Shown here: positions 14,221 through 48,938 of the stretch, piece after piece
How the letters are laid out: each line of letters opens with the position of its first letter
Position numbering within the stretch: position 1 is the stretch's first letter
Source: Marine Group II euryarchaeote MED-G34
GTDB lineage: Archaea; Thermoplasmatota; Poseidoniia; Poseidoniales; Thalassarchaeaceae
DNA: 64,000 nucleotides
Assembly: GCA_002457605.1 (NCBI GenBank)
Contig: NTJT01000001.1
Coordinates: 15,269 to 79,268 of the forward strand
Direction: 5' to 3'
Notes under the pieces: model-generated
What the model was told of the DNA's origin: nothing
Seen by the model: only the letters and a program-made list of their open reading frames with translations
Database searches by the model: none
Translations under genes and position numbers: made by a program

Positions 14221-14359
14221 TTCTAACTCTGATACGGGAACCCTCCAGTCCTCGCCGTCCGGGCCTGAAATGCGCTCGGCATCCCAACTCATGCTAACGC
14301 TTCTAGAGCCACCCACGAAAGGTATTGTGGGAACACACAGAGTGTGTTCTGCACCCACA

Positions 14360-23524: not shown

Positions 23525-23624
23525 GGTGCGGCCGAGGGCGCCTCCCTCAAAAAGGCACCCCCGGTCCTATGGACCGCTTCTCCGAGGGATTGAATACCGC
23601 CCCTATGGTCGCAGAGGCGTTCAG

Positions 23625-31749: not shown

Positions 31750-32865
31750 TCAATCGAATCGATGAAATCCGCCTTCTGGGGTACTGCGCGTCTTTCTTGA
31801 GATATTGAGGGCCTCTCCGAGCATATCTGCGCTCATCATCTCAGCCTCGAGCCGGCTGTTGGCAACTCCGGTGATGATTGACATCACTTTGATGGTGTCT
31901 CCGAAGGCCGGATCTTGTCTGGCTCCGAATATGACGTTGGCATCGGGAGAGAGTCTTGCTGTCATCAGATCACAGACCTGGTTAGCTTGCTCCAGCGTCA
32001 TGTATGGACCACCTGTAACGTGGATGAGAGCACCCGTCGCCCCGTCTATCTCAATGTCGAGAAGCGGATGGTTGAGGGACTCGTGAACTACCTCCTCTGG
32101 ACCTTGGTCACTCTCTCCATAGAGCATCATCGTCACGCCTCCACCCTTCATGATGGCTCGGACATCTGCGAAGTCGAGGTTGATTAGGCTCGGCAGGGTG
32201 ATGGTCTCGACCACTCCCTTGACTATCTCTGCGATGAGCTGGTCCATGATACTGAAGGCTTCGTCGAGAGGCAGGTTTGGGACGAAGTGGAGAAGTCTGT
32301 TGTTATCCAGCACCAGAACTGCGTCGGCCGCCTTCCTGAGTAATTCAAGTCCTTCCAATGCTCTCTGCATTCGCTGTCTGCGCTCGACTGAGAATGGAGT
32401 TGTTACGACGGCCACGACTAGAGCCCCTGAGCGCTTGGCCTCCTCTGCCACGATTGGAGCAATCCCGGTTCCAGTGCCTCCACCTAATCCGGCGGTGACA
32501 AACACTAGGTCAGCCCCACCAACAATCTTGGTGATGACATCTCTACCGGCCTCAGCGCAGCGTCGTCCAGTGACCGGGTCCCCTCCGGCACCAAGTCCGC
32601 GGGTGATGTGCCTGCCGACCAACAATTTCTGCATCGCTCTTGTGTGATCGAGGTGTTGCTTGTCGGTGTTGATCGCTACGGTGACAGCTCCCTCAACACC
32701 GATGTGAGTAATCCGATTCATCGTGTTATTGCCAGAGCCCCCACAACCGCATACTAGGATGCGTGGGTCTGGGGGCCCGTACGATTCGAGCTCCCTATCT
32801 GTCAGCGCTGTTGGAATCCTACCGTCGGGTATCTGATCAATTACTGATGCCGGCGCCTCAACCAT
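31750..32865 (-). CDS. ftsZ: Cell division GTPase FtsZ (tubulin/FtsZ family)
   Basis: GGGTGTG tubulin signature, the NTD.Q.L motif and the T7 loop region. About 371 aa. Confidence 0.85.
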   Translation of the reverse strand: MVEAPASVIDQIPDGRIPTALTDRELESYGPPDPRILVCGCGGSGNNTMNRITHIGVEGAVTVAINTDKQHLDHTRAMQKLLVGRHITRGLGAGGDPVTGRRCAEAGRDVITKIVGGADLVFVTAGLGGGTGTGIAPIVAEEAKRSGALVVAVVTTPFSVERRQRMQRALEGLELLRKAADAVLVLDNNRLLHFVPNLPLDEAFSIMDQLIAEIVKGVVETITLPSLINLDFADVRAIMKGGGVTMMLYGESDQGPEEVVHESLNHPLLDIEIDGATGALIHVTGGPYMTLEQANQVCDLMTARLSPDANVIFGARQDPAFGDTIKVMSIITGVANSRLEAEMMSADMLGEALNISRKTRSTPEGGFHRFD

Positions 32866-34204: not shown

Positions 34205-36589
34205 GTGCGCCGAGCGTCCGCCACCCTACTAATCGCCCTACTGCTGGTCAGTTCAGCACCTCTGGTTCAGGCAGGAGAGAAAGGGGTCATCTCATGCGTC
34301 AACGCCGACCAGTCAATGATGCCGGCAAGTTGGGATCTCGATGATCAGTCATGTGTAAGGGTCGATTTGGGGGAGTTGGAGCCCGGCGAAATTATCTCCT
34401 TCGATTTGACCACTGATTCTGAAATAGATATCCTCATGTTCTCGGTCAACTCGATTTCAGTTTACCAGAATGAGCAGTCATACCGCAGCGATTCGATTTG
34501 GGAGAGGAACTCGGTATTCGAGGAATTCATCGGAACCGGTTCCTGGCACTGGACTGTCCCTGACGATAGGGAGATGACCCGATGGTACCTCGTTCTCGAC
34601 AATCTAGTCCACCCTCAGGATGGAGGAGGTGGCGCTCAGGGAGGTTCGATAGCGTCAATCGCACTAGACTCGGAAATGATCACTCCTGGAACGTTCACCC
34701 TCGCTGACACCATCGTTAGACTCGACCCCGGCGAGCACTCGGTACTGCACGGCCCGTTCATAGTAGACGCTGGCACTCAAGTCAGGATGGAGGCCAACAC
34801 CATGGAGGGAGCTCCCGATGTATTCCTAATGACTTCCTCGCAGGTGGCTCTGTATGAGCAGGGCGGCACCGCAGCCGCACGCGTCGAAGGTACCGACATG
34901 CTACTCATCACTCAGGAACGTGACATGGTCTGGATGGCTACCGAGACTTACGAGGGAGAAGATCTCTATCTGGTGGTCGATAACAGAGCAGGTCCTGCAG
35001 GAGGAGGTGCTGGAACCGAGGATACCGCAGTCACAGTTACACTCACTCTGACCCCGGTACTGGAACCAGTAATCAGCGGAGACGTCTCTCTTGAGATAAT
35101 CAACGTCGGCGACATCGTCACTCTGGACGCTACGCAGACTCCGAACAACTCCGGCCAGATTCCTGAGTCTGGCTTCCATTGGGACACCAACGGAGACGGA
35201 ACAGATGACACTGTAGGGTCGTCTGTGAGTGTCAGTTGGTCAGACCCCACTAATGTCACTATCAGACTTACTGTAGTGGCGATTGACGCGCGTAGCGCCA
35301 GCTCGTATCAGTCAATCGAGGTCGCGGACATTTCTGGGCCCGAAGTAAGCATTGGAGCCTCTGCGATATTGGAACGCACATATGGGGACGATGTGGTACT
35401 CAGTGGGCAGGTGAGTGATAATTGGGGCATCGCCACAATCGAATGGCTCGTCGATGATGTTCTGATACGGACCAATTCGGGCAGCGACGAAGGAGCAACC
35501 GTGTTCAACCATCTGTTCAACTCCAGTTACTCCGCCGGACTCCACACCATCACCCTGAAGGCCACTGACAATTCGGGCATGGTTTCCGAAGACACCGCAA
35601 CTATCAGTCTGTACGACTCCACTCCGCCAGTCATCGGAACACACCAAGAGGAGGTGAATCTGCAGATAGGCCAGACCTTCCGCTTTGAGGCCAACGTCAG
35701 CGATTCCGAATCGAACAACCTGTTATTCTCGTGGGATTTCAACAGCAATGTAGACTCCGATTCTGACGGCGACCCAAGGAACGACAACGACGGTTTTGGA
35801 GACTCGGTGCTGTGGAGTTACGATGCCTCCGGTCCTATGATTGTAGTCTGCCAGATTGAGAACGACGCCGGGCTGGTTTCCGAGTTTGAGGTGCTGGTCA
35901 ATGTGCTCAGTGGTAACGAGGATGATGGATTGGATTTGATGCAGTTGGGACTCATGGCCGCAGCTGCTCTCATAGTGGTAATTCTGATTGCTCTGTTGAC
36001 TTGGCGATTCATGTCTAATCGTAGACTTGCAGCGATGATTGCCGAAGATGATGAGCCTGAGCAGCCTGTATCCGCAGCCCCCTCAGTCGAGGAGCAGAAG
36101 GCCATGTGGGGTGGAGCAGAGCCCACCATGCAGATTGAGCAGCCTGCTCAACAGGTCTTCAATGACTTCTCAAGCGGGATGTCAGGTTCGACCCAAGATA
36201 TCTCCACTGCAATGGGTGAGTCTGAGGGAGAGGAACTGGATCCCGATATCGCAGCTCTGCTACGGTCATCCGAAGAAGAGGATGCCTCAGGCCCAAGTCC
36301 TGCCAAAGAAATCCTATCAGAGTTTGACGAAGATGACTCTGTCGAGAGAGAAGATATCGATTACTCACATGAGACTCAGACTGAGGAAACCGTGTCAAAC
36401 TGGTCTCCCGGAGAGGACGAAAATGAGGTCTTCCAACCTAAAGAAATTGAGTCGGAGCCGGATCGAAAAGTTCGCCAGAATTGCTCTTCGTGTGACAAGA
36501 AGTTCGAGGTCGAACTTCCTCCTGGACTTGACGCCGCTAGGACAGCTTGTCCTCATTGCGGCTCGATTGAATCGATTAGCCTAGGGTGA
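34205..36589 (+). CDS. Large membrane-anchored surface protein with a signal peptide, a 600-aa ectodomain with Ig/PKD-like repeats, one TM helix, an acidic cytoplasmic tail and a C-terminal Cys4 zinc ribbon
   Basis: GTG start (VRRASATLLIALLLVSSAPLVQA). The TM helix is LMAAAALIVVILIALLTWRF. The tail is rich in D/E/S and ends with CSSCDKKFEVELPPGLDAARTACPHCGS. Confidence 0.6.
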   Translation: MRRASATLLIALLLVSSAPLVQAGEKGVISCVNADQSMMPASWDLDDQSCVRVDLGELEPGEIISFDLTTDSEIDILMFSVNSISVYQNEQSYRSDSIWERNSVFEEFIGTGSWHWTVPDDREMTRWYLVLDNLVHPQDGGGGAQGGSIASIALDSEMITPGTFTLADTIVRLDPGEHSVLHGPFIVDAGTQVRMEANTMEGAPDVFLMTSSQVALYEQGGTAAARVEGTDMLLITQERDMVWMATETYEGEDLYLVVDNRAGPAGGGAGTEDTAVTVTLTLTPVLEPVISGDVSLEIINVGDIVTLDATQTPNNSGQIPESGFHWDTNGDGTDDTVGSSVSVSWSDPTNVTIRLTVVAIDARSASSYQSIEVADISGPEVSIGASAILERTYGDDVVLSGQVSDNWGIATIEWLVDDVLIRTNSGSDEGATVFNHLFNSSYSAGLHTITLKATDNSGMVSEDTATISLYDSTPPVIGTHQEEVNLQIGQTFRFEANVSDSESNNLLFSWDFNSNVDSDSDGDPRNDNDGFGDSVLWSYDASGPMIVVCQIENDAGLVSEFEVLVNVLSGNEDDGLDLMQLGLMAAAALIVVILIALLTWRFMSNRRLAAMIAEDDEPEQPVSAAPSVEEQKAMWGGAEPTMQIEQPAQQVFNDFSSGMSGSTQDISTAMGESEGEELDPDIAALLRSSEEEDASGPSPAKEILSEFDEDDSVEREDIDYSHETQTEETVSNWSPGEDENEVFQPKEIESEPDRKVRQNCSSCDKKFEVELPPGLDAARTACPHCGSIESISLG

Positions 36590-36650
36590 TTCATCTACAA
36601 CCTCGGTTATTAGATGCAAAGCCGGTTCCTGTAAGGCAATACCCTATAGC

Positions 36651-36667
36651 GCACCTCTAGGAGGTGC
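36651..36667 (+). promoter_or_regulatory. Perfect 17-nt palindrome GCACCTC-TAG-GAGGTGC immediately upstream of the 36672 start codon. It sequesters the SD-like GGAGGTG and is a candidate translational-control hairpin, terminator or protein-binding site.
   Basis: Read directly from the sequence. 7-bp stem, 3-nt loop. The ATG lies 5 nt downstream. Confidence 0.45.
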
Positions 36668-36671
36668 GAGC

Positions 36672-39600
36672 ATGGGCAACACTGGTATCCGGTTGGTCTC
36701 TAGGGCGCCGAGGGCGAACAATTCGCATACCCTGCTGATGGCCTTGCTGTTCTTGCTCCCTATCCTTTCACCCTTCTCTGCGGTGAGCGGCGAGGCGAGA
36801 ATAGAATCTCAGGACTTCGAGGTACTTGACCAACTGTCCGAAGTACTAGAGGAGCGCCAAGAGATGTTGGACAGTAACTCCGTAGCGCAGTTGGCCCAAC
36901 CAATCATCGAAGGAATAGGTAACTCGGTAGTGCCTACTGGGCCATCTGACCCTCTCGCCAATGTGGATGGATCAATAGATGGAGTGAGTATGGTGACGAC
37001 TACTCCTCCACAACCACAGCATCCTGGCCCCTACAATCTGCTGTTGGACCCCAGTAGCAGTTCTCCCGGCCAAGTCGATAACATCTGGCAGACTCTGGTA
37101 AATCTGACCGACTATGTGATTTGGACAGAGTACATCGACCTCGATGGGAACACAATCCAGAGCTTTGAGGTGGTGACATTCTCAGCCAATCTACTGTCTC
37201 TATTCGACATCAACTCCGAACCTCTTCTGCACGAGATTGACGTCGACAACGACGGGGATGATGACATCGAAGTTGGACTGAAGATTGCCTGGGAGTTCCT
37301 CGGCGGATGGGGGGTGGAAGGGGGAGTGCTTTGGATTGAGCCCGGCATTTCGTACTCGGTCAAGGTACTCGACTCTAGCCAGAATGATCTAGATTGGAAT
37401 ATGATGGACTCGCTGCAAGTATCACTAATCAAGGCATTTGCATATTCCGGGCAGGACTCCATACTGGCCCTCGGAGACGGTGAAACCTACATTTGGGTTG
37501 TCGACTCAAGGTTCACCGCCCAACCGGATGACTTCACTCTCCGAGTAGGAATAGAGAGATTCTATTTCGATATCTCTGGAGCCAGTTCCGATCTAGTATT
37601 CACTCTCATACAGGCACTCACGTTAGGACTAATCAATCAAGGGGCGGATGAGTCCGGAATCACTTTCGCTGCGATTGCCGCACCATACGCGATCGAGTTC
37701 AGGAACCCTGGTGGACGTGACTGCCCGGACCGGTATTCTCCTGACGAGATGCTCTTCGCTACTTACACGGAGCTGAATTGCGGAGTCTCGGCGGGCTTCG
37801 GATACTTACACTTCTCTCCACCCGATGAAAGTGGCGATAGAGACCTCTGGGAACTGGCATACATAGAACTCTCATTCCATCCCAATAAGCAAGCCGTGGT
37901 CATTCCCGAGGAGGCTGACGTAGTCATTAGGACAGATAGCGTTCTGCCCGAGAATAGCATCGTCGACGGTGAGAGGGGACTGACCACAATCGAGTATTGG
38001 GCAGACGAGAGAACCGACTTACATATCCACTTCCACGAGAACAGATCGGAACTCCCTCCTGAGGAATCCAGCGATGGAGGTAGAGGTAATGTGACCGACT
38101 CCGTAGGATGGCTGAGAGGGTTGCCTAAAGGGTCCTTGTCGGAAGGAGAGATAGAGCGCGTTTTCCGTATGCTTGGCTCTGATGGCTCGCGTTCCCAACT
38201 CCCAGGTGAACTCCCACAGAGGCTTGGCTTTATCATCGGAATCAAGAACTTCTCCAGAGACAACAGTGAGAATGTCGACGACCCCACTCTACCGGTAAAT
38301 CCAGCAAACCCTCCTAAGACCCTGATTCTCATACGGTCGGTGCAATCGATAGAGGAACTCAACTATGACTCGTGGTTCATCAGAGAGGGTGCTGCAGAAG
38401 ACCACAGAAAGATACACATCAGAGCGAAAGACCTGCCGACGGCACTGGTTCTCTACGGATCTTTCGAGCTTAGCAGCGGGAGCTCAAGTGAGAGTGGACT
38501 TGACTCAGAAGACAGCCTCGACTTCGTATCGAAGATTGTGGATAATGTCCTAATCAACATAGTCGATTTGTTCTTGGACATAGGAACCATCCTGAATGAC
38601 GTCCCTTCAGCCGTGGTGGATGTAATCAGCGGTGGTGTTGATGGGACCAGTGGCCTCGCGGGCAGGACAGTCCACCTACTTCTTACAGACAACTGGCTAG
38701 TCACCAGATCTGACATGCCGTTAACCAGCCTTTCAATTCAGATAGGTTCGAGTGACCATCCAACTGATTCAGGCGACCATCTGATGCTGGCAAAAGACAG
38801 GGGACTTGGTTTAGTTCAAGGCAGGAACGGACCAATCGAACCCCTAGCGCCAGTAGCGGCTAGCATCGGGTTCAGCGGCCTCATTGCATTCTCTCTAATC
38901 GACGACAACGAGTTGGATGAACAGGTCGTGATACTACGCACCGCATCTGATGAGAGATTCTCATTCACCTACATTGATTATCATTCAAAAACTCTCGAAG
39001 GAGCCTCCTTTGAGGCTCTGACACTCAGTGACATCCCTGACAATCTCTCCATACAAGTATCAGCAAGCGGAATGGAATACCTCGCTTCGTCCGGTATCGA
39101 GTCGATTACCTACGCGGGTATGGACGGCACTCAGCGTCAGGCAGCTACCATTATCGGTGTGCCCGACTCATTCAGCACCACATCAGGCTTCGTCACTGGA
39201 TGGTCATCCTCCACTCCTATCTCATCGATTGAGGCGCAGATTAGCAATTCAACTGACCCTGTCAGATTGACGGGTGACCACTTCCTCTTCCATCATGATC
39301 AGATAACTGGAGCTTCAACAATCTCAACTAGGTTGACCGGGCTCAGCGAAGTTAGTTGGACGGAGCCTTCTGTGGAGGGAGCCTCGGGTCCTGCTGGCCG
39401 GGGAACCGCTCAGATATCGGCGTCAGGCGACCGAGCCCTGAGTATCAACGTCGACCATGCTCCGACTGTGGGGGGTGACTCACTCTCAGTGATTGCCTCA
39501 ATTGACCCACTCCCATCTACTGTCAGAATCCAGATACCGACAGGATCCGACTCAGGAGCCAGTCTCGATGTGCCTGAATTCAACACCTCAAATGGCCTCT

Positions 39601-41057
39601 CTGGAGTAGCTTTCTTCATCAGCGGTTTCGCCGACCTCGGCAGGTCGGTAAACAGCGTCCTATCAGGCATCACCTCAGACATCTCGACCAGCTCGGAGTC
39701 CGAAGAAGACTTCTCCTTCGGCCTCCAGTTGGAGGCCGACTCAACATTCGACTTGACCGTAGAGGCTGTGCATGGCGACGGTTCGCTCAGGGTACCCACT
39801 TGGGTCCATGGGGTCGCCTTTCAGGCATCTCCCTCCGGAATCGCTGATGGCTTCCACTTGAGGATATGGCTACCCGAACTCCCTCCATTAATTGACTTCT
39901 CGATTACTAGGCAGAACAAGGTCAACGGCCAGAACTGGGGTATCAGTGTGGGCCTTGAAGGCTGGGTGCCGGCACATAGCGAACTCATGGTCCAGATTTA
40001 CGGAATCAACGGTCAGGACTTGCTACTGACCCTTCAGGGTCTGACGGTCGGAGCATCTACTAATCTCGGACTCGATGCGGTATTTGAAATCAAATCGGTC
40101 GGTGAAATTACCGAGGTCACAACCTCGACCCACTATGTTCTCTCTGAGAGGTTGGACTGGGTCCACGTCCTTCTAATCAACAGAGAGGCGGGAAGCAGGA
40201 CCGAGGTGATGATTCAGGACATCCCGGAGACCGTTGATTTGCAAGCTAGCATAGGCACGGCGATATCCATTGACATGACCGTTCCCGAACAGTACAGGCG
40301 CGACGGCTCCTCAGTCGGTTCCATCATGATGCAGCAGATGCAGTGGCTGGATTCAGCATGGTGGCCTGCAACGATATTCCTGACCGACGTTCCCGGCTGG
40401 ATTAACCTGACGACAGCCCCCTCGCTTGAGTTCGACATAACTCAAAATCTGGCTTTCCAAGGAACCCCGACGCTTGACTTCAGGGCTTCCGAAGAGGGCA
40501 TGTCATTGTACATAGAGGTCTTTGGTAGGGCGATAAACAAGAGAGGAGACACAATCTTACTAGCTGAGGGAATGACCGATTTCATGTCAATTAGTACCAC
40601 CAAGACATTCGGTCTCTCCATCAGATCAGGTGGCGTTGGGGTCGAACGTCTGTACATCAGGATGAGCAACGTTCCAGTCACACCTCCATTGGTTCTTGAG
40701 GAGATGGAGGCGTTGGGTGAGAACCTACAGCGGGCCACGGTCAACATCAGGGAGCTAGTGGGTCCGTACAGCATCATTGAGATTGATGACGTTCAGGGTG
40801 AGAGAATCATCGTCTCGGCCCGTGCCTCAGCCGACATTGAGGGCAACGAATTCGATCTCAGAGGCGTCCTCCTCGACGCTCAGATTACCGATGGTATTCC
40901 AACCGGTACAACTCTGGGAGTCAATGGAATAGCCTCTGATCTCTCATTGCTCAACATGGTTCCAGGAATGAGCGGCTCGACCAAGCATGTGATGGTCGTA
41001 GAGCCATTCTCATCTGCGATTCTTACGATACTTGCGACGTTCATGGGAGGTGATTAA
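36672..41057 (+). CDS. Giant (1461 aa) secreted protein of unknown function with an N-terminal signal peptide and no obvious membrane anchor
   Basis: An ATG preceded by GGAGGTG. Signal-like N-terminus (LLMALLFLLPILSPFSAVSG). It is Ser/Asp/Gly-rich, with no recognisable catalytic motif and no C-terminal TM helix. Confidence 0.6.
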   Translation: MGNTGIRLVSRAPRANNSHTLLMALLFLLPILSPFSAVSGEARIESQDFEVLDQLSEVLEERQEMLDSNSVAQLAQPIIEGIGNSVVPTGPSDPLANVDGSIDGVSMVTTTPPQPQHPGPYNLLLDPSSSSPGQVDNIWQTLVNLTDYVIWTEYIDLDGNTIQSFEVVTFSANLLSLFDINSEPLLHEIDVDNDGDDDIEVGLKIAWEFLGGWGVEGGVLWIEPGISYSVKVLDSSQNDLDWNMMDSLQVSLIKAFAYSGQDSILALGDGETYIWVVDSRFTAQPDDFTLRVGIERFYFDISGASSDLVFTLIQALTLGLINQGADESGITFAAIAAPYAIEFRNPGGRDCPDRYSPDEMLFATYTELNCGVSAGFGYLHFSPPDESGDRDLWELAYIELSFHPNKQAVVIPEEADVVIRTDSVLPENSIVDGERGLTTIEYWADERTDLHIHFHENRSELPPEESSDGGRGNVTDSVGWLRGLPKGSLSEGEIERVFRMLGSDGSRSQLPGELPQRLGFIIGIKNFSRDNSENVDDPTLPVNPANPPKTLILIRSVQSIEELNYDSWFIREGAAEDHRKIHIRAKDLPTALVLYGSFELSSGSSSESGLDSEDSLDFVSKIVDNVLINIVDLFLDIGTILNDVPSAVVDVISGGVDGTSGLAGRTVHLLLTDNWLVTRSDMPLTSLSIQIGSSDHPTDSGDHLMLAKDRGLGLVQGRNGPIEPLAPVAASIGFSGLIAFSLIDDNELDEQVVILRTASDERFSFTYIDYHSKTLEGASFEALTLSDIPDNLSIQVSASGMEYLASSGIESITYAGMDGTQRQAATIIGVPDSFSTTSGFVTGWSSSTPISSIEAQISNSTDPVRLTGDHFLFHHDQITGASTISTRLTGLSEVSWTEPSVEGASGPAGRGTAQISASGDRALSINVDHAPTVGGDSLSVIASIDPLPSTVRIQIPTGSDSGASLDVPEFNTSNGLSGVAFFISGFADLGRSVNSVLSGITSDISTSSESEEDFSFGLQLEADSTFDLTVEAVHGDGSLRVPTWVHGVAFQASPSGIADGFHLRIWLPELPPLIDFSITRQNKVNGQNWGISVGLEGWVPAHSELMVQIYGINGQDLLLTLQGLTVGASTNLGLDAVFEIKSVGEITEVTTSTHYVLSERLDWVHVLLINREAGSRTEVMIQDIPETVDLQASIGTAISIDMTVPEQYRRDGSSVGSIMMQQMQWLDSAWWPATIFLTDVPGWINLTTAPSLEFDITQNLAFQGTPTLDFRASEEGMSLYIEVFGRAINKRGDTILLAEGMTDFMSISTTKTFGLSIRSGGVGVERLYIRMSNVPVTPPLVLEEMEALGENLQRATVNIRELVGPYSIIEIDDVQGERIIVSARASADIEGNEFDLRGVLLDAQITDGIPTGTTLGVNGIASDLSLLNMVPGMSGSTKHVMVVEPFSSAILTILATFMGGD

Positions 41058-41058
41058 A

Positions 41059-41613
41059 ATGGGACTGCTAGAGAAGCTAAGGAGTGAGGACGAGGAGGCT
41101 GACACCCAGATTGCCCACGAGGTGTTAGAGCGAATCGAGGAGGAAGCTAGGAGACACATCTCACCGACTCGAGTGATTTTCGCCTCTGTGGCAGTCATGC
41201 TTCTGCTCGTTGCGAGCCTGTTTGTATTGACCTGGATTGTTCCATACGACCGTGTAAGTGTAGACGTGGTGTATAGACAAGGGGGCCCTGGCCACGTAGT
41301 TCTGGTCGAACTCGACAACGATGGCAGCCGTACCATCGAAGACATCGATCTGCAGGTTAGATTCATCGACTCAGAAGGAATAGAGATTTCTCGATCATCA
41401 TTTCTCAGGGACAACCTACCGGCTCACTCGTCGGTTTCAGGGGACGACATGGAACTACTGGTTGACGGCGCCTCAGTGTGGGAGAATTACACCATCGAAA
41501 TTCTGCTCTACTACGACTCCTACGCTGGCCAGAGGAGTGAGAGATGGACTCACAATGTGGGAGAGTGGACAATGGAGATATTCTCTGACAAGTCGCAGTA
41601 CCGATTCCTGTAG
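41059..41613 (+). CDS. Single-pass (type II) membrane protein with a 120-aa extracytoplasmic beta-rich domain
   Basis: ATG at 41059, 1 nt after the upstream stop (the ORF-track start at 41032 was rejected). Acidic N-terminus, TM helix VIFASVAVMLLLVASLFVLTWIV, then the domain. Confidence 0.5.
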   Translation: MGLLEKLRSEDEEADTQIAHEVLERIEEEARRHISPTRVIFASVAVMLLLVASLFVLTWIVPYDRVSVDVVYRQGGPGHVVLVELDNDGSRTIEDIDLQVRFIDSEGIEISRSSFLRDNLPAHSSVSGDDMELLVDGASVWENYTIEILLYYDSYAGQRSERWTHNVGEWTMEIFSDKSQYRFL

Positions 41614-41632
41614 TGTCCAATCATGACTTTTC

Positions 41633-41651
41633 ATGGGTTCGTAGAACCCAT
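41633..41651 (+). terminator. Hairpin ATGGGTTC-GTA-GAACCCAT (8-bp stem, 3-nt loop) between the 41059 gene and the subtilase gene
   Basis: Read directly from the sequence. It lies 20 nt after the stop at 41613. Confidence 0.35.
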
Positions 41652-41684
41652 ACGCTCAAATTGAGGAGGACGAGGCGATAGCCG

Positions 41685-44600
41685 ATGACAAAGCGCTTAG
41701 TGACACTGATGATGACAATTCTTCTGTTGTCCTACGCCCCTATTCTCGATCAGTCGCCTACTGAGGGAAATACCACTGTGGAATCCTTGGATCGCGTGGT
41801 CGAGAAAGTGGAAATTTCTCCTGACCCAAACAGCATTCAAGACCTCGGCGCCCCACAAATCTACTCTGGCTTCGAAGATTTCCGGGCGACAAGAGCCGAC
41901 TCCACCATTGGCGTCTACACTCAAGCAGGATTACTCCCCTCAGTTCAGATGAGCGTCGAGTTGGCTAATCCACGAAACGACCTCGCAATAGTTCTCATCG
42001 ATGGCGAAGTTGGCCTCTGGGAGGCGAGGCAGGCCCTACTCGAAGCAGCTGATGTTGAAGTCAGGTCTACCATTCCTCCCTCTGGATTCCTAGTGCAGGC
42101 TACACCCGAAAGTATCTCCGCACTTTCTCAAATCAAAGAGGTTGAAGCCGTACACGAAGTCCCAGCCGGCCTTCTGGTTCACCCTGATTTGAGAATGGCT
42201 AACGGGGACCAAACACTCCTCGTCGAAGTACTTGGTTGGAAGAACTCGGACCTAGTCCGACAAGACCAACCAGGTATGGGTTTCGAGGATTCTTTGAACA
42301 TCGCCGCATCACTCTGGATGGAGGAGGCGTGGTCACCAGAGGAGGGTAGAATGTGGGGTATGATATCACCTAGTGAAGTGGCTGATTTAGCCAGACATTC
42401 TTCTGTCGCTTATGTCGCCCCTATGCCCCTTCTAGTTCTGCATAACGACCAAGCTAGGGTCCACATGGGAATCAACTCAGTTGAGACCACCTTCATCACT
42501 GGATTGAATGGTAGCGGGCAGAAGATTGCTGTGGGTGATTCCGGCCTCGACGACGACCACGGAGACTTCACAGGACGAATCGCCGGCCTGACTTCGGTCA
42601 CCCCTGGAGATTCATCGACAGCAGATCTCTCAGACGGGCACGGCACTCATGTTGCTTGCACAGTGTTGGGTGACGGATTTCGTAGCAGTGGCACCTACCA
42701 GGGAATAGCACCCGAGGCCCAAGTTTACTTCCAGGCTATGGAGGACGACGATACTGGACAGTTGTACAGTTACGGCATCAATAGTATGTTGAATTCTGCT
42801 TACAATAACGGCGCCCGATTGCACACAAACAGTTGGGGCGCTGGTAGTGGAGGCGGCAGTTATTCGACCCAATCAGAGGATGCGGACTCCCGCACCTCGA
42901 CATGGGATCAATACTGGTCTTATCAGGGTATGACCGTGCTGTTCGCAGCCGGCAACGAGAGGAACGAAGGAGTCTCACCACCTGGGACTGCAAAGAACGT
43001 CATCACTGTCGGCGGACACAAGAATCGATACAGCGGTGCTCCTGATGAGATGTACTACTGGAGCAGCCGTGGTCCGACTGATGATGGGAGAATCAAACCA
43101 GACCTAGTCGCCCCCGGGGACTACGTCAGGTCGTGCAAATCGCAGGAGGCGGACAGCGCTCAGGGTTCATGGAGTAACAACTGGTACCTCGAGTATAGTG
43201 GCACCTCGATGTCCACCCCAGCTGCTGCCGGAGCGTCTGTCCTAGTCAGAGAGTACCTGATGGAGGTGATTGGTAGGCAGGCGCCACAAGGCGCCCTAAT
43301 CAAGGGACTTCTGATACTCGGTGCTCAGGATATGGGTACTCGGGATATACCCAACAACGATGAGGGGTGGGGCCGACTGAATCTCGTCGAGTCGCTGATT
43401 CCAGACAGTGATGTTGGTATCTTCGTCGACGACCGCTCCCGACTCTCTAGTGGACAGACGAGCGAGTACTCCTTCGATATCACCCGTGCGGGCGAGCCGA
43501 TGAAGGTGGTACTGACTTGGTCTGACTATCCTGGCTCATCTTCTTCTTCGACTCAACTTAGGAACGACCTCGACCTTGAGGTCATATCTCCCAACGGACA
43601 GATTACGTACAAAGGCAACGCCTTCGTAAACGGACGATCAGTCAATGGCGGGACCAAGGACTCCACCAATAACGTCGAGGTTGTGCTAATCGACAACGCA
43701 GCCACGGGAACGTGGACTGTGCGCGTGCGCGACGCCCAGCATGGCGGTAGCCGGACTTGGCAGCCATACGCTCTCGCTGTTCGCGGCGTCAATGTCAATG
43801 ATTTGAGTCCAGATCCAACCTTTGTCCAGAACTCATTTGAGATTTCATCCCCTATTCCTCAAGTCGGAGAGGAGGTCGATGTTTCCGTCATCATTCAGAA
43901 CCAAGGTGCCGGTTCGGTCGCCGACCTCTCGGTCATCGCCCGAGCCGACAGCAATCTGCTTGGCACCCATCAGTTGAGTATGTCTCCTGGGGAATCGGCA
44001 GTACTCGAGTGGAACTGGACGCCGACACAAGAGGGAGATGTGGAGTTCACATTCCACATAGATCCGAGTGATACAGTAGAGGAAGTCTCAGAGACTAACA
44101 ATTACCTCACTCATACTGTCATTGTCAGCGCACCAGGGGTCAGGGTGTCCTCAGAACAGGAAACCGTCACTCTCGGTGATGCGACAGACAGTTCGACCAC
44201 TTGGCAACTCTCACTGATGAATACCGCTCTGTTCGAGACCAACGCTACAATAGAGGTCAGTGACCCTGTTCGGATGCAGGATGGAGTGCAATACGATTGG
44301 TTCACGTCGTTTACCTCAAACACCTTCAATCTCGAGGCAGCCGAAACTGAATTAGTCAGTCTGACTATGGTGCATCCCGCACCCCCTCCCCCTGGACTCT
44401 ACAGTATGGTGGTTACTGGTACAGACGTTGAGAATAGCGTCACCTCAGAGCTGGTGATATTCTTCGACGTGCCAGTGCTGGCTGGAGCTGAAATTGTGAT
44501 GCCAGGGGAGCAGTTCCTCGTGAGTCCGCTTGAGTCCACAGAACTGCAGATACTGGTCTTCAACGAGGGCAACGGCGCTCAGGCCTATGATGTGGAACTG

Positions 44601-46178
44601 GTATCCCCCGCGGGCTGGCATCTCGGATTCGACACGCTTGGCGCCTTCGCTGGATCTTCACACGGTTCGACCGGGACCATGGCTAGGGACGCTGGACGAA
44701 CAGTCGACATCACAATCAATCCTCCAGGTGCTATGATTCCTGCAGGATCCGTTTTTGATGCTGCGATAATCATCCACTCACGAGTCAGTTCCGACTCTTG
44801 GAGCGAGGACATTTCACTTGTGGTCAAGGCGATAGACGAGGTCAGTACTACACCTTCATCCGACGGAGCAGAGCACGACATCTCTCCCGACGCACTACTG
44901 GAAATCGAGGTGGATCTCAGCAATCTGGGAAATCGGATGCTGGACCTACAGCCGTATGTGCGCAACATCCCTGGAGGATGGACTGTATCAGGAGGGCTGG
45001 ACACCATCAGCATCCCCGCGGGAGAATCTGGTGTTTGGTCTGTGGCTCTACAGGGCAACGGAGTAGCTGTTAGTGGGGATTTCGAACTCAGATTCGCTAC
45101 TGATGATGGCTTTTACATAGACTGGAACCGAACTCTAAACGTCCTTTCAGGAGCAATTCCCTCTCTGAGTTTCCACATGGTCGCTCTGCCCGATGGAACC
45201 GTCTCAGACTATCCACTTGGAGTTGGATCTCACCCAGTTGGTGAGCCCGGCTTCGACCTTGCTTGGACAGTTACCAATCAAGGCTCTACCACATGGCGAC
45301 CTACTACTTACCTCGAGGTTCCTGACGATGATTGGTCATCGAGTTGTTCCGCTCCCTCTACGCTTTCAGCAGGCGCCTCATCCACAGTTTGGTGCACTGT
45401 AGTAATACCTCTGTCAGCCGAGGCCTTATCCGAACCCATCATCACACTAGTTATGCAAGGTGAAGGCGTTGAGGTGAGCGATTCGATATCACTACTGGTT
45501 GAGTCTGTTGCTAGAGTGAGTTGGACTTTGAACAATCAACCTACAGGGCATGAGGGCTACCCGACTACACTGTACATCGATTTACAGAACACCGGCAATT
45601 CGGAGATATCTCACATTCTCCAAGTATCTGGTCCTGAGGGTTGGGCCCCTCTAATTCTCGATGGAGTAGTGGTTAACTTGAGACCCGGAGAGACCCGGAG
45701 TCTTGATGTCGGATTCACTCCTAATTCTGGGAGCGATGGGATTCTAGTGGTCGAATTGGCCGATGCCGATGACGTCGAAGATTTCTCATTCAGCATGGAA
45801 ATCGACGTACTTCCGGCTGCTAAGGTGCAAGGAACATCAATTCTAGAGACACTAATGATTGCAGTTTTGGTACTCGCGCTGGTCGGTGGTGGCCTCTATG
45901 TTTACTCCCGTAGGGGAAAAGACTCCTCAAGTCTGATTCAAACTGAAGCACTGAGTAAGATAGCCGATAGTTTCGGGTTGGGTGAGAAGGAGATAGTAGA
46001 GAGCAGTGGAGTCCCCTGCTGGATTTGTAGTCAGGACATCACATTAGAGGCGGCATGGGCCTGTTCCGAGTGCGGTGCTAGATATCACAGGGCAGGTCAG
46101 GTGCAGGGCTGCGACGTCCTCTCCATGGGCAACTGCCTGCACTGCGACGCCCCTTCCGAAGATCTCGTTGAAGTGTGA
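41685..46178 (+). CDS. Membrane-anchored S8 (subtilisin-like) serine protease. Its ectodomain (about 1350 aa) carries multiple CARDB/COG1361-like repeats, followed by a TM helix and a cytoplasmic tail ending in Cys-rich zinc-ribbon motifs.
   Basis: Catalytic triad blocks VGDSGLDDDHGDF (Asp), DGHGTHVACTVLG (His) and GTSMSTPAAAGASVLVREY (Ser). Repeats of the x-V-x-N-x-G-N/S type (IIQNQGAGSVADLSV, ILVFNEGNGAQAYDV, WTVTNQGSTTW, IDLQNTGNSEISHIL). TM helix TLMIAVLVLALVGGGLYVY. Tail CWICSQD...CSECG...GCDVLSMGNCLHCD. Confidence 0.8.
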   Translation: MTKRLVTLMMTILLLSYAPILDQSPTEGNTTVESLDRVVEKVEISPDPNSIQDLGAPQIYSGFEDFRATRADSTIGVYTQAGLLPSVQMSVELANPRNDLAIVLIDGEVGLWEARQALLEAADVEVRSTIPPSGFLVQATPESISALSQIKEVEAVHEVPAGLLVHPDLRMANGDQTLLVEVLGWKNSDLVRQDQPGMGFEDSLNIAASLWMEEAWSPEEGRMWGMISPSEVADLARHSSVAYVAPMPLLVLHNDQARVHMGINSVETTFITGLNGSGQKIAVGDSGLDDDHGDFTGRIAGLTSVTPGDSSTADLSDGHGTHVACTVLGDGFRSSGTYQGIAPEAQVYFQAMEDDDTGQLYSYGINSMLNSAYNNGARLHTNSWGAGSGGGSYSTQSEDADSRTSTWDQYWSYQGMTVLFAAGNERNEGVSPPGTAKNVITVGGHKNRYSGAPDEMYYWSSRGPTDDGRIKPDLVAPGDYVRSCKSQEADSAQGSWSNNWYLEYSGTSMSTPAAAGASVLVREYLMEVIGRQAPQGALIKGLLILGAQDMGTRDIPNNDEGWGRLNLVESLIPDSDVGIFVDDRSRLSSGQTSEYSFDITRAGEPMKVVLTWSDYPGSSSSSTQLRNDLDLEVISPNGQITYKGNAFVNGRSVNGGTKDSTNNVEVVLIDNAATGTWTVRVRDAQHGGSRTWQPYALAVRGVNVNDLSPDPTFVQNSFEISSPIPQVGEEVDVSVIIQNQGAGSVADLSVIARADSNLLGTHQLSMSPGESAVLEWNWTPTQEGDVEFTFHIDPSDTVEEVSETNNYLTHTVIVSAPGVRVSSEQETVTLGDATDSSTTWQLSLMNTALFETNATIEVSDPVRMQDGVQYDWFTSFTSNTFNLEAAETELVSLTMVHPAPPPPGLYSMVVTGTDVENSVTSELVIFFDVPVLAGAEIVMPGEQFLVSPLESTELQILVFNEGNGAQAYDVELVSPAGWHLGFDTLGAFAGSSHGSTGTMARDAGRTVDITINPPGAMIPAGSVFDAAIIIHSRVSSDSWSEDISLVVKAIDEVSTTPSSDGAEHDISPDALLEIEVDLSNLGNRMLDLQPYVRNIPGGWTVSGGLDTISIPAGESGVWSVALQGNGVAVSGDFELRFATDDGFYIDWNRTLNVLSGAIPSLSFHMVALPDGTVSDYPLGVGSHPVGEPGFDLAWTVTNQGSTTWRPTTYLEVPDDDWSSSCSAPSTLSAGASSTVWCTVVIPLSAEALSEPIITLVMQGEGVEVSDSISLLVESVARVSWTLNNQPTGHEGYPTTLYIDLQNTGNSEISHILQVSGPEGWAPLILDGVVVNLRPGETRSLDVGFTPNSGSDGILVVELADADDVEDFSFSMEIDVLPAAKVQGTSILETLMIAVLVLALVGGGLYVYSRRGKDSSSLIQTEALSKIADSFGLGEKEIVESSGVPCWICSQDITLEAAWACSECGARYHRAGQVQGCDVLSMGNCLHCDAPSEDLVEV

Positions 46179-46184
46179 ATTTAC

Positions 46185-46203
46185 CGCGACCCAAGGGGTC
46201 GCG
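46185..46203 (+). terminator. GC-rich hairpin CGCGACCC-AAG-GGGTCGCG (8-bp stem, 3-nt loop) 7 nt after the subtilase stop
   Basis: Read directly from the sequence. No T-tract follows. Confidence 0.4.
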
Positions 46204-46244
46204 TCGCCCGAAGTCCTTAGAGGGACGGTTATGTCGGGGTGCCG

Positions 46245-48938
46245 ATGAAGCGCAGTTCATCTGCCATCATTCTAACCGCGATGTTGCTGCTCACAATCGT
46301 AACACCGTTAGCCGCAGCAGCGGTATCAGTGTCCCTTTCTGCCAATCCTACGGCTCAGGAGGCTACCACAGATGACGACGCTGAGTACGACATCATCGTG
46401 ACCAATGACGGGGATGAGGACATCTCAGTGTCTCTCAGCACGCAGCAGGGAAATGACTGCAATGGATTCAGCTCCTCCTTGGACACGTTCCAAGTCTCGG
46501 TTAACGAAGGTGAGTCTGAGACCGTCAAACTAACCGTCACCGTGAATGACCAGGCCGATGGCGACTGTGAGACGACGGTGAACGCCCAAGCTACTGGTGG
46601 ACTAGGATCTCCTGCCAGCGACGATGTCACAGTGACGACAACCGCAGGTGATGGTGGCGGACTCTACTCGGTGAAGCTGACTACAGATGAGCAGTTGAAG
46701 ACCTACGACGGCGACTCGACCGAGTCCGACAGCGTCGTTTGGGATGTCGAGGTTGAGAACAACGGCGAGCAACAGGCAAACGTTCAACTGGAAATGACTT
46801 CAGACAGTGACTGCGAGTCTGATACTCTCGATGCCACCGTAGACCCTCAGGTTCTGCAATTGGACCCAGAGGACAAAGAGACTGTCGAAGTGACTGTGGA
46901 CGTGCCTGACGGCAGTTCAACCGAAGCGGGAGATCACTGCTTCATCCTCAAAGCCACTGTGACCAACGATCCCAATGCGGCCGACCAAGCCGAGGACAAC
47001 ATCACCCTGACTCTCAAGATACCGGAGCGCAAGGATTGTGATCCCGATCTGCAGTTCACCTCGCACAACCTCGATCCGGGAGATTCGGCCACCAACTCGT
47101 TCGAGGTCGAGAACATTGGGAACACGGAGTGGACCGTGACTGCCAACGCACAGGCTCAGGACTCCGACCACGATATTGCAGGATGGGTGGACTTCGACAG
47201 TCCCCTGAGCAAACTTCTCTCTGAGCCAGGCGGTTCGCAGGATAGCCATACTTTCACCTTCAGTGTGACTCCTGATGATTCCATCGAATCTGGGACACAA
47301 GTGGGGATCAAGATTCAGGGGCGTGCTGGGACTTCAATCGGATGTGAGCAGATTCTAACTGTCACCGTCGGCCAGAGCCACGGTGCTTCCATGACCCTGA
47401 GCAAGAACAAACTCAGCAATGTCGAGCCGGGCAGTTCTGACACAGTCACAGTCCAGATTACCAATCAAGGGAATGGCATGGAGACCATGTCCATCGGCGC
47501 CACAGGACTGCCTCCGGGATGGCAGATTTCATTCTCTCAGACTTCAGTGACCATCGGTAGTTCACACTCCGGCAATAACAAAGAGACAGTGACTGCAGAG
47601 ATATTCGTTCCCGAGGACGCTAGCGCTGCCGAGGACACGGTCATTACCTTCACAGTCGGACGTGGCGGAGGTAGCACTCCTTACGACACCAAGGACCTCA
47701 CAGTGTCAGTGGCTGCGCGTCATAGCGTCACCACTTCGATACTCTCAACCCAGCAGACAGGCCGAACGGAACAGACAATCCAGTTTCCCATAGATGTGAC
47801 CAACTCGGGAAACATTCAGGACACTTTCAAGCTGCAGGCCTGCGACCCAGGAGATAACACAGGATGCAACTCTCCGATGTGGGAGTCGTCATTCTCCGAT
47901 TCGCAGGGAAACACAATCTCACAAATTATTCTCGACCCCAGTCAGAAGCAGACCATCTATCTCGACATCTTAGTCGAGGGTGAGGAGGACGCTGATTCGG
48001 TCAGCGTGCTTGCACGGATAGCTATCTATGGGACCTCAGTGGCGGACGAGCACACTGTCAGTGTGGTGGTCTCGAACTTCAACTACGCAATGGCTATCTC
48101 CCCTCAGAATCCCGGTGAGGTACCTGACCAGATTGAAGCAACCCTTCCTCCGGGTGGTTCCATGACCGCCGCATTCTGGGTCGAGAACACAGGGGACTAT
48201 CCTGGAGGGGACAAAGCCGTGATTACCGTCATCGGTATGGAGTCGTCAGTGCTCAGGACGATGACGATTGAAGGCGTCGAGATTGATGGGACAGTGACGC
48301 TGGGGATGGGAGAGAGAGTACTTGTCGAGGTCCATATCGACGTTCTCGAAGGAGTTGCAAACGGAGTCTCTGGCGTAGTCAAGGTTAGTGCTTCTTCGGA
48401 GAGGAACACAGCTCAGAGCACTTCGGTTGATATTGTGGTTGAGGTGAGGACCATCCACGATCTCAGATTCACACTCGAAGGCGAGGACGAGCAGACCTCC
48501 GAATATCCAGACAAGGCCTATTTCGTCCTCTACATCACTAACCATGGCAACATTGTCGAAGATGTCCAAGTTCTATCCAGTGAATCTCTTAGGGGTTGGA
48601 CCGTCAATGTCGATTTCGACGAGTTTGAACTTGAACCTGGACTGACAAAAGAGGTTCAGGTTAGTGTCACACCACCTAGCGATTTACTCGACGATGATAC
48701 CTACATGTTCACTGTCACTGTGCAACCCGAGGGGATTGCAGTCGCTGGTGAACCCATCGATTTGACGGTGACCTCACAGATGCCATCGACCTTCATCGGC
48801 CTGTCTGAGGAAATGGCTCAGGCGCTCGTCTACGGGTCTATTGTTCTGGGCGCAATTTTGGTCATCGTACTGTTCTTTCGCTCTCGTTCGGAGAACCGCC
48901 GAATAGTCGAAGCACTCGAAAATCAGTTTGAGGACTAG
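46245..48938 (+). CDS. Surface (S-layer-like) protein with a signal peptide, at least 7 tandem CARDB/COG1361-like beta-sandwich repeats and a C-terminal TM anchor with a short basic tail
   Basis: ATG at 46245 (MKRSSSAIILTAMLLLTIVTPLAAAA). Repeats IIVTNDGDEDISVSL, VEVENNGEQQANVQL, FEVENIGNTEWTVTA, VQITNQGNGMETMSI, IDVTNSGNIQDTFKL, FWVENTGDYPGGDKAV, LYITNHGNIVEDVQV. C-terminus ALVYGSIVLGAILVIVLFFRSRSENRR. Confidence 0.65.
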   Translation: MKRSSSAIILTAMLLLTIVTPLAAAAVSVSLSANPTAQEATTDDDAEYDIIVTNDGDEDISVSLSTQQGNDCNGFSSSLDTFQVSVNEGESETVKLTVTVNDQADGDCETTVNAQATGGLGSPASDDVTVTTTAGDGGGLYSVKLTTDEQLKTYDGDSTESDSVVWDVEVENNGEQQANVQLEMTSDSDCESDTLDATVDPQVLQLDPEDKETVEVTVDVPDGSSTEAGDHCFILKATVTNDPNAADQAEDNITLTLKIPERKDCDPDLQFTSHNLDPGDSATNSFEVENIGNTEWTVTANAQAQDSDHDIAGWVDFDSPLSKLLSEPGGSQDSHTFTFSVTPDDSIESGTQVGIKIQGRAGTSIGCEQILTVTVGQSHGASMTLSKNKLSNVEPGSSDTVTVQITNQGNGMETMSIGATGLPPGWQISFSQTSVTIGSSHSGNNKETVTAEIFVPEDASAAEDTVITFTVGRGGGSTPYDTKDLTVSVAARHSVTTSILSTQQTGRTEQTIQFPIDVTNSGNIQDTFKLQACDPGDNTGCNSPMWESSFSDSQGNTISQIILDPSQKQTIYLDILVEGEEDADSVSVLARIAIYGTSVADEHTVSVVVSNFNYAMAISPQNPGEVPDQIEATLPPGGSMTAAFWVENTGDYPGGDKAVITVIGMESSVLRTMTIEGVEIDGTVTLGMGERVLVEVHIDVLEGVANGVSGVVKVSASSERNTAQSTSVDIVVEVRTIHDLRFTLEGEDEQTSEYPDKAYFVLYITNHGNIVEDVQVLSSESLRGWTVNVDFDEFELEPGLTKEVQVSVTPPSDLLDDDTYMFTVTVQPEGIAVAGEPIDLTVTSQMPSTFIGLSEEMAQALVYGSIVLGAILVIVLFFRSRSENRRIVEALENQFED

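Follow-up and report, generated by a model that had tools for sequence, protein, structure and literature searches.

Why do two exported envelope proteins of a marine archaeon end in small cysteine-rich modules that appear to lie inside the cell, and what could such modules do there? The question is raised by a stretch of 64,000 nucleotides from the Marine Group II euryarchaeote MED-G34 (contig NTJT01000001.1, forward strand, positions 15,269 to 79,268; hereafter the window). Here, a cluster of five co-oriented, closely spaced genes (34205-48938) encodes a protein with a PKD/Ig-like ectodomain (protein 1) and an S8 subtilase (protein 2), whose C-termini hold a four-Cys ribbon (tail 1) and a domain with the ligand order C4-H-C3 (tail 2), respectively. 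The existence of both tails, their fold class and the selection that acts on them are strongly supported. We propose that they are zinc-stabilised docking heads by which the two envelope proteins are tied to one another or to some partner in the cytoplasm, a proposal that we hold to be about evenly poised between right and wrong. Coordinates of all features are collected in Table 1.

A sequence-only reading of this DNA had described both open reading frames (ORFs) and their Cys-rich C-termini as we find them, and had ascribed to the two proteins the same layout. They do share a signal peptide, an ectodomain, a single transmembrane (TM) helix, a tail and a Cys-rich end; the tethers that join helix and module are not alike, with 152 residues and a net charge of -33 in protein 1 against 36 residues and -1 in protein 2. 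The placement of the tails in the cytoplasm, claimed in the same reading, is borne out by several features. Both N-termini are signal-like (in protein 1 residues 1-24, MRRASATLLIALLLVSSAPLVQA followed by GE, with the junction VQA/GE), the ectodomains hold domains of secreted type (PKD/Ig, S8, CARDB, P-domain), and a single strong hydrophobic helix is followed directly by three Lys or Arg residues, against none or one before it. In protein 1, the helix has acidic residues before it and the basic RFMSNRR after it, and 194 more residues follow. The ectodomains are sparse in Cys (3 of 551 residues in protein 1, 4 of 1358 in protein 2), and zinc knuckles fit a reducing compartment. On these grounds the Cys-rich segments of both proteins are very likely cytoplasmic. 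It is strongly supported by the same sequence features that the last 90-195 residues of each protein would stay inside the cell, with export by the signal peptide and the one C-terminal TM helix as an anchor.

The extracellular parts differ in kind. The ectodomain of protein 1 gives weak Pfam matches to PKD and Big_7. Protein 2 matches the full-length profile of Peptidase_S8 (PF00082) at residues 276-563 with 148.3 bits against a cut-off of 21.8, and keeps the catalytic motifs DSG (D285), HGTH (H319) and GTSM (S508). Its ectodomain also holds a P-domain (P_proprotein, 22 bits against a cut-off of 21) as well as CARDB and NPCBM_assoc Ig-like domains.

Scanning species-representative genomes with the tail of protein 1 recovered 45 Poseidoniales loci, labelled mostly as Thalassarchaeum or Thalassarchaeaceae. 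Across these loci the orthologues of protein 1 are 46-100% identical and those of protein 2 61-100%. The ribbon stands at the end of all 43 complete protein 1 orthologues, and the C4HC3 domain at the end of all 32 subtilase orthologues whose C-terminus is covered. Every ligand is invariant in both sets, so the Cys clusters are not a product of chance; both tails are present in each of the 32 loci that cover both positions. The mean pairwise identity in protein 1 amounts to 0.63 for the ectodomain, 0.30 for the TM helix, 0.42 for the tether and 0.70 for the ribbon. The corresponding values for protein 2 are 0.89 in the S8 domain, 0.70 in the remaining (mid-)ectodomain, 0.41 in the TM helix, 0.38 in the tether and 0.75 in the zinc domain. 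Judged by these alignments, there is strong support for purifying selection on both zinc modules, which appear to evolve as slowly as the ectodomains or slower, and for drift of the TM helices and tethers.

Tail 1 has the pattern CSSC-x18-CPHC, with the knuckles C760-x2-C763 and C782-x2-C785 and the Cys codons within nt 36482-36559. The start at 36466 proposed by the sequence-only reading is out of frame by two bases; the module spans nt 36461-36586. Its top Pfam match is Zn_ribbon_8 (PF09723), at 30.3-30.5 bits against a gathering cut-off of 34.4. This family ranks first for 12 of 13 tail 1 ribbons, and PF09723 is a precomputed assignment on 12 of 27 homologues. As in that family, two CxxC knuckles some 17-19 residues apart form a beta ribbon, and tail 1 shares with Zn_ribbon_8 and TIGR02605 both the CxxC-x(~18)-CxxC arrangement and the FE...CP.CGS signature. 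The score against the NCBIfam model TIGR02605 itself, 'FmdB family zinc ribbon', is 23 bits (cut-off 31.3). Lower still are Zn_ribbon_4 (PF13717; 15.2 against 30.3) and TIGR02098 (12.9 against 20.9); the best Zn_ribbon_4 match of the tail 1 family (E = 4e-6, member not named) is likely due to the ribbon of a distant protein 1 orthologue.

Members of the Zn_ribbon_8/FmdB family are usually small soluble proteins with an N-terminal ribbon. Tail 1 departs from this context, being formed by the last 42 residues of a 794-residue protein with a signal peptide and a TM helix. An AlphaFold2 model of the whole cytoplasmic portion of protein 1, built with 17 homologues, shows the TM helix, a tether mostly of low confidence and a four-stranded ribbon with a predicted local distance difference test score (pLDDT) of 82-88. 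The zinc-type fold that the sequence-only reading had suggested looking for is seen in the model of tail 1, and tail 2 is modelled as a compact domain too (see below). Foldseek neighbours of tail 1 in the PDB are all zinc ribbons, none of them significant (best E 0.8): Tim15, the cytosolic domain of TMEM55B, MCM N-terminal domains, S27e and the ZitP zinc finger (2nb9). A sequence-profile search of the PDB gave nothing convincing (best E 0.04). Besides the ligands, residues R, F, E, P, G, A and T are invariant. Tail 1 lies on the border of a known ribbon family, and its setting, C-terminal and tethered to the membrane, is unusual.

The linker before this ribbon had been called low-complexity, a description that falls short. 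Among 40 orthologues, its motifs EQKAMW (nt 36092-36109) and SGMSG (nt 36173-36187) are at least 90% conserved and mostly invariant, and DPDIAxLL and LLSxF are partly conserved. AlphaFold2 places short helices at EQKAMW, DPDIAxLL and LLSxF, with low confidence elsewhere in the tether. In the distant lineage of locus L052, a Lys-rich basic stretch (nt ~130-330, in error-prone sequence) precedes a protein 1-type ribbon, so that the charge of tether 1 may differ within the order. Protein 2 has a tether whose length and composition vary between lineages, and which is Pro/Ala-rich in distant orthologues. A comparison of the C-terminus of the neighbouring FtsZ with the motifs of tether 1 revealed no evident resemblance; bacterial FtsZ C-terminal peptides resemble DIPAFL.

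Tail 2 has seven Cys in the last 53 residues of protein 2, as the sequence-only reading had counted, and an invariant histidine, H1468, which that reading had missed; the module thus has eight ligands, in the pattern C-x2-C-x11-C-x2-C-x4-H-x7-C-x7-C-x2-C. Across 15 divergent members, the seven Cys, the one His and the G-A-R of the CGARYH core (nt 46071-46088) are invariant, and nothing else is; the second His, within CLHC, is not conserved. In domain numbering the ligands are C12, C15, C27, C30, H35, C43, C51 and C54, the C4-H-C3 order that characterises Prok-RING_1. One sub-lineage has the tighter spacing H-x2-C-x4-C-x2-C, and the H-to-C distance ranges from 2 to 7 residues. The AlphaFold2 model of the 64-residue domain is compact (mean pLDDT 80). 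Its secondary structure is compatible with a RING/PHD-like cross-brace, with two sequential sites, or with a C-x2-C-x4-H...C knuckle nested in a rubredoxin-like site; presumably two zinc ions are coordinated. More generally, the ligand patterns and the models lead us to infer that both modules bind zinc.

Two Pfam families, Prok-RING_1 (PF14446) and DZR (PF12773), match 14 of the 15 tail 2 members each, all below cut-off, and stand as joint best matches. For Prok-RING_1, tail 2 scores 19.6 bits against a gathering cut-off of 29.1, and the best of 25 family members 20.3; the likeness lies in the ligand order and in a CP.CGA.YH-like core. DZR matches about as well (best E 5e-5; 17.3 bits for tail 2 and 23.7 for the best member, against 27.3), but in place of four knuckles tail 2 has three of CxxC type and one H...C pair. 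Among prokaryotic membrane proteins, DZR and similar ribbons often form the cytoplasmic end. Weak matches to TackOD1 (17-20 bits against 32) were dismissed as compositional, arising from a TM segment plus CxxC. The top Foldseek matches in the PDB, none of them significant (best E 0.2), include rubredoxins and RING domains in mixed order, and a sequence-profile search of the PDB returned an unconvincing multi-fragment C2H2 match (best E 0.01). Tail 2 is a lineage-restricted C4HC3 domain, caught by no Pfam or NCBIfam model above threshold. The sequence-only reading had recognised no described family in the tails; tail 1, although its own score stays just under the cut-off, looks like an ordinary Zn_ribbon_8/FmdB-like ribbon.

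The two tails are not one shared module. They are different domain types without detectable homology: in a six-frame search of the window, the hidden Markov model of each tail matched its own protein alone (93.9 and 120.6 bits), everything else scoring 8 bits or less. Neither does tail 2 recur on other envelope proteins. When 1.84 billion representative proteins were searched exhaustively with a tail 2 profile (E <= 0.001), only 39 hits were returned, of which about 22 are genuine and the remainder multi-repeat zinc-finger proteins. Each genuine hit that was inspected lies at the extreme C-terminus of a protein, complete or fragmentary, that consists of Ig-repeat ectodomain, TM helix and linker. 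Hits with retrievable context are distant subtilase orthologues (ectodomain identity 30-38%, tail 40-47%), followed by a homologue of the 899-residue protein of the cluster and by the nuo operon. A promiscuous module is thereby ruled out, the genuine hits all coming from the orthologue group of this one subtilase. At one distant locus, the ORF ending just before the homologue of the 1461-residue cluster protein, in the position of protein 1, has a terminal CPSC-x18-CPSC ribbon; the ribbon of tail 1 therefore survives deep divergence too. The other C-terminally anchored surface proteins of the window (of 1461 and 899 residues, and an M14 carboxypeptidase) have no such tail.

What function, then, do these properties favour? 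The invariant non-ligand residues, CGARYH in tail 2 and R, F, E, P, G, A and T in tail 1, speak for a specific surface and not for a mere fold. Only two of the four C-terminally anchored proteins of the cluster carry a tail, which is therefore not a generic requirement of anchoring. Together with the conserved motifs of tether 1 and the otherwise freely varying tethers, these observations make a passive plug less likely than the specific recognition of a protein. Combined with precedents in other organisms, they are the reason why we adopt the docking-head reading. A type-I-anchored surface protein would hold each module out into the cytoplasm on a flexible tether, and the module would act as a protein-binding head, through which the two envelope proteins dock to one another or to a partner in the cytoplasm. 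Such docking could position, cluster or retain a surface proteolytic or envelope complex from inside, and the conserved motifs of tether 1 could provide additional binding sites.

The first precedent is ZitP of Caulobacter, a bitopic membrane protein whose cytoplasmic MJ0042-type zinc finger binds the PopZ scaffold (PMC5182065, PMC5182063). Like protein 1, it is a single-pass protein with a small four-Cys cytoplasmic zinc ribbon, which in ZitP serves as the docking element for a cytoplasmic partner. The finger of ZitP is N-terminal (type II) and bacterial, whereas tail 1 closes an archaeal signal-peptide protein; tail 1 does not qualify as an MJ0042-type finger by score or by position, no PopZ-like partner is known for it, and the resemblance is functional and architectural only. 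The second is TMEM55B, a lysosomal adaptor hub whose cytosolic tandem RING-like zinc domains (zinc beta-sandwiches) bind short motifs of their partners (PMC12393467). Here too, zinc-stabilised beta modules of about 40 residues lie on the cytosolic side. TMEM55B is among the top-ranked fold neighbours of tail 1 and weak Tmemb_55A matches are found in Pfam, but it is a eukaryotic two-TM protein without an ectodomain, its zinc domains are N-terminal, the matches are non-significant, and we do not claim homology. The sequence-only reading had considered zinc ribbons on the intracellular side of surface proteins unusual, which in view of ZitP and TMEM55B is overstated: the cytoplasmic zinc finger on a single-pass membrane protein is an established principle. 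What is unusual here is the C-terminal placement on signal-peptide proteins, along with the lineage-specific C4HC3 domain.

Further systems are comparable in part. Zinc-binding anti-sigma factors are also single-pass membrane proteins with cytoplasmic zinc fingers. By layout only, protein 2 recalls the furin/kexin-type proprotein convertases (S8 protease and P-domain, followed by a TM helix and a cytoplasmic tail that is functional) and the PA-TM-RING ligases (an ectodomain, a TM helix and a cytosolic RING); their tails are not homologous to those described here. The tails of these proteins work in vesicular sorting or ubiquitination, neither of which is, to our knowledge, known in this archaeon.

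Several points weigh against docking heads. An intracellular docking partner, already suggested by the sequence-only reading, remains the most plausible role, but docking as such is inferred. Zinc binding is read from ligand patterns and from models made without metal, and the fold matches are all non-significant, with the best E values at 0.2 for tail 2 and 0.8 for tail 1. For the topology we relied on hydropathy, on the positive-inside rule and on the kinds of domain present rather than on a dedicated predictor, and the organism is uncultured. Finally, conservation tells that the tails matter, not what they do.

Of the alternatives, one comes close to the docking proposal itself. The zinc modules may bind each other or self-associate, and so assemble or oligomerise a five-protein envelope complex from the cytoplasmic side with no need of a separate partner. 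Both genes and both tails co-occur in every locus that covers both, and zinc ribbons provide oligomer contacts in fold neighbours such as the MCM N-terminal domain. The co-occurrence is equally explained by common ancestry of a core cluster, however, and tether lengths of 36 and 152 residues do not suggest a fixed pairing; we consider this unlikely.

Outside-in signalling strikes us as rather unlikely. An event at the ectodomain would lead to cleavage in or near the membrane, and the freed tail would bind the transcription or translation machinery or nucleic acid, in the manner of a membrane-tethered regulator or an anti-sigma factor. Zinc ribbons are indeed common in archaeal transcription and translation factors, and the long acidic tether 1 with its conserved motifs resembles a regulatory region; the weak matches of tail 1 to RpoP, the TFIIB ribbon, Brz and S27e point in the same direction, yet all are far under threshold. 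One public source names protein 1 a 'predicted RNA-binding Zn-ribbon protein' (DUF1610), but tail 1 is net acidic overall, which is unfavourable to nucleic-acid binding. Neither the cluster nor the window contains genes for a site-2 protease, a rhomboid or a transcription factor, and the cluster, syntenic in all 45 Poseidoniales loci recovered, lies among housekeeping genes and not beside a regulated target.

The modules could also do without any protein partner, either as membrane-proximal lipid binders of FYVE/C1 type or as quickly folding plugs that hold the C-terminus on the cytoplasmic side and make the anchor more stable. This we regard as improbable. Weak C1_1 and FYVE matches exist, and both modules lie at the extreme C-terminus straight after the tether; nevertheless, the ribbon of tail 1 is some 150 residues away from the membrane, and the 1461- and 899-residue proteins and the M14 peptidase of the window are C-terminally anchored without such a plug. 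The invariant surface residues that are not ligands and the tether motifs suggest specific recognition instead.

A more far-reaching alternative takes tail 2 for a genuine prokaryotic RING/PHD-type cross-brace, so that protein 2 would be a membrane-tethered E3-like ligase or adaptor linking the protease to a modification or turnover pathway of ubiquitin-like (SAMP/Ubl) type, and the prokaryotic equivalent of the transmembrane RING ligases of eukaryotes. The C4-H-C3 order of its ligands is invariant and agrees with the C4HC3 configuration of prokaryotic RING domains given in a review (PMC11354881). Prok-RING_1 is among the best Pfam matches of 14 of 15 members, the H-x2-C variants spanning positions 2-50 of the 54 in the profile, and the RING domains of RING1B/BMI1, Bre1 and Rad18 are among the top Foldseek neighbours. 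Against this, the Prok-RING_1 scores are all below cut-off (at best 20.3 against 29.1) with DZR scoring equally well, the Foldseek matches are non-significant with rubredoxins ranking level with RINGs, the modelled secondary structure fits a sequential or nested arrangement of the sites as well as a cross-brace, and the H-to-C spacing of 2-7 residues is unlike a RING or PHD knuckle.

The genomic neighbourhood argues in the same sense. The prokaryotic RING finger family 1 was reportedly described by Burroughs, Iyer and Aravind in 2011; some of its members are fused to TM helices, and its genes associate with Ubl, E1, E2 or JAB components. By Pfam, E1, E2, JAB and Ubl domains are absent from all of the roughly 47 ORFs of the window, and the neighbours of the tail 2 gene encode envelope proteins, L15e, FtsZ and the nuo operon. 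We therefore find a ligase-like tail 2 very improbable. A broader version, in which a cross-braced RING/PHD-like tail 2 recruits a ubiquitin-like or other cytoplasmic modification or turnover system outside Asgard/TACK, with the ribbon and motifs of tail 1 as a possible substrate or co-adaptor, seems to us a shade more improbable again. If it were true, the RING of tail 2 would couple surface proteolysis to the tagging of proteins inside the cell, as an archaeal parallel to the transmembrane RING ligases of eukaryotes or even as their precursor.

The idea that the Cys-rich ends are extracellular disulfide-bonded segments or functionless chance clusters, which has nothing in its favour except that the topology does not come from a dedicated predictor, is effectively refuted by conservation, all ligands being invariant across 32-43 species, and conflicts as well with the signal peptide, the single TM helix with basic residues after it, and the CxxC spacing and models typical of zinc knuckles.

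Table 1. Genes of the five-gene cluster and parts of proteins 1 and 2, in window coordinates.
Feature	Position	Strand	Description
Protein 1 gene	34205..36589	+	794 aa; signal peptide, PKD/Ig-like ectodomain, one TM helix, predicted zinc-ribbon tail
Protein 1 TM helix	35945..36004	+	residues 581-600, LGLMAAAALIVVILIALLTW; hydropathy 2.87; helix in AlphaFold2 model
Protein 1 tether (predicted cytoplasmic)	36005..36460	+	residues 601-752; 152 aa, 27% D/E, net charge -33, mostly disordered
Tail 1, predicted C-terminal four-Cys zinc ribbon	36461..36586	+	residues 753-794; C760, C763, C782, C785
1461-aa protein gene	36672..41057	+	signal-like N-terminus; TM helix at extreme C-terminus; cytoplasmic tail absent
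193-aa single-pass protein gene	41032..41613	+	acidic ~45-aa N-terminal cytoplasmic segment
Protein 2 gene, S8 subtilase	41685..46178	+	1497 aa; signal peptide, ectodomain, TM helix, tether, C4HC3 domain
Protein 2 TM helix	45834..45908	+	residues ~1384-1408; hydropathy 2.34; RRGK directly after
Protein 2 tether (predicted cytoplasmic)	45909..46016	+	residues 1409-1444; 36 aa, net charge -1
Tail 2, predicted C-terminal C4-H-C3 zinc domain	46017..46175	+	C1445, C1448, C1460, C1463, H1468, C1476, C1484, C1487
899-aa Ig-like-repeat surface protein gene	46239..48938	+	C-terminal TM helix; Cys-free 21-aa tail after helix

Proteins identical to those of the window are deposited under 'Marine Group II euryarchaeote MED-G34' and 'Candidatus Thalassarchaeum sp.' (Poseidoniales), and public records name the two tailed proteins otherwise as 'hypothetical protein' or 'S8 family serine peptidase'. 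Upstream of the cluster are the gene for ribosomal protein L15e and a divergent ftsZ (31750-32865, minus strand, ~1.3 kb upstream, in a neighbourhood 88-100% identical between loci), and downstream is the nuo operon. In all 45 loci, as far as the contigs extend, the order is ftsZ, a 275-residue membrane protein, L15e, protein 1, the 1461-residue protein, the 193-residue protein, the subtilase and the 899-residue protein. The cluster (loci L003-L047 and L049-L052) is strictly syntenic in the 45 Poseidoniales genomes recovered and in more distant lineages, and has the look of a core Marine Group II module of envelope or S-layer type. Literature searches on Poseidoniales S-layer and surface proteins and on cytoplasmic zinc-ribbon tails in archaea returned no description of the cluster or of the two tails.

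As for the other three members, the 1461-residue protein has no match in Pfam or NCBIfam despite 55-100% identity across Poseidoniales, and is a candidate major envelope protein of unknown fold. The 899-residue protein, syntenic even in distant lineages, matches NCBIfam 'choice-of-anchor T' with 90 bits against a cut-off of 70 and, weakly, the PACE-CTERM putative S-layer family. The 193-residue protein is a possible partner for the zinc tails because of its acidic N-terminus of about 45 residues on the cytoplasmic side. Its listed start overlaps the 3' end of the preceding gene by 26 nt; the true start is probably Met10, at nt 41059.

Two of the loci call for a comment on data quality. Contig PAHZ01000001.1 (L031), deposited as 'Chloroflexota bacterium isolate NAT190', holds a complete Poseidoniales cluster with identities as in L028 and a tail 2 identical to that of L028, and is most likely mis-binned. 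In L052 (an 831-kb long-read contig, ERZ28548085) the cluster genes are split into short calls, such as 1243 and 107 residues for the subtilase, which looks like frameshift errors rather than real fission; several short database 'proteins' (P0090, P0036/37 and others) are such frameshift fragments.

Elsewhere in the window, at 23175-27586, the gene of the 872-residue M14 carboxypeptidase, which has a C-terminal TM anchor, overlaps by 4 nt the gene after it, for a transporter of the sodium:neurotransmitter symporter family; the pair gives the impression of a peptidase on the surface that is coupled to the import of amino acids. The ORFs of an M24 peptidase (13039-14601, minus strand) and of phosphoglycerate kinase (14270-15664, plus strand) overlap by ~330 nt on opposite strands; the true start of the kinase is probably further downstream, since its Pfam match begins at residue 48. 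The ORFs at 11128-12222 (364 residues) and 20587-21837 (416 residues) have no Pfam match. A further zinc ribbon may lie in the former, where two CxxC pairs occur at residues 198 and 223, a spacing of 25 residues.

A subtilase is among the highly transcribed genes of Marine Group II (PMC9723583, Table 1); the paper is silent on whether it is the same one. The tails described here offer a concrete handle for asking how, from inside, these cells arrange, place or regulate the machinery that degrades proteins at their surface: the domains are small, soluble and expressible, their surface residues are invariant and the tether motifs are defined. Marine Group II, never yet brought into culture and presumed to feed on proteins, are among the most abundant archaea of the surface ocean. 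If the docking-head reading is true, they would use an archaeal, C-terminal version of the strategy known from ZitP and TMEM55B, a finding that would be useful rather than revolutionary.

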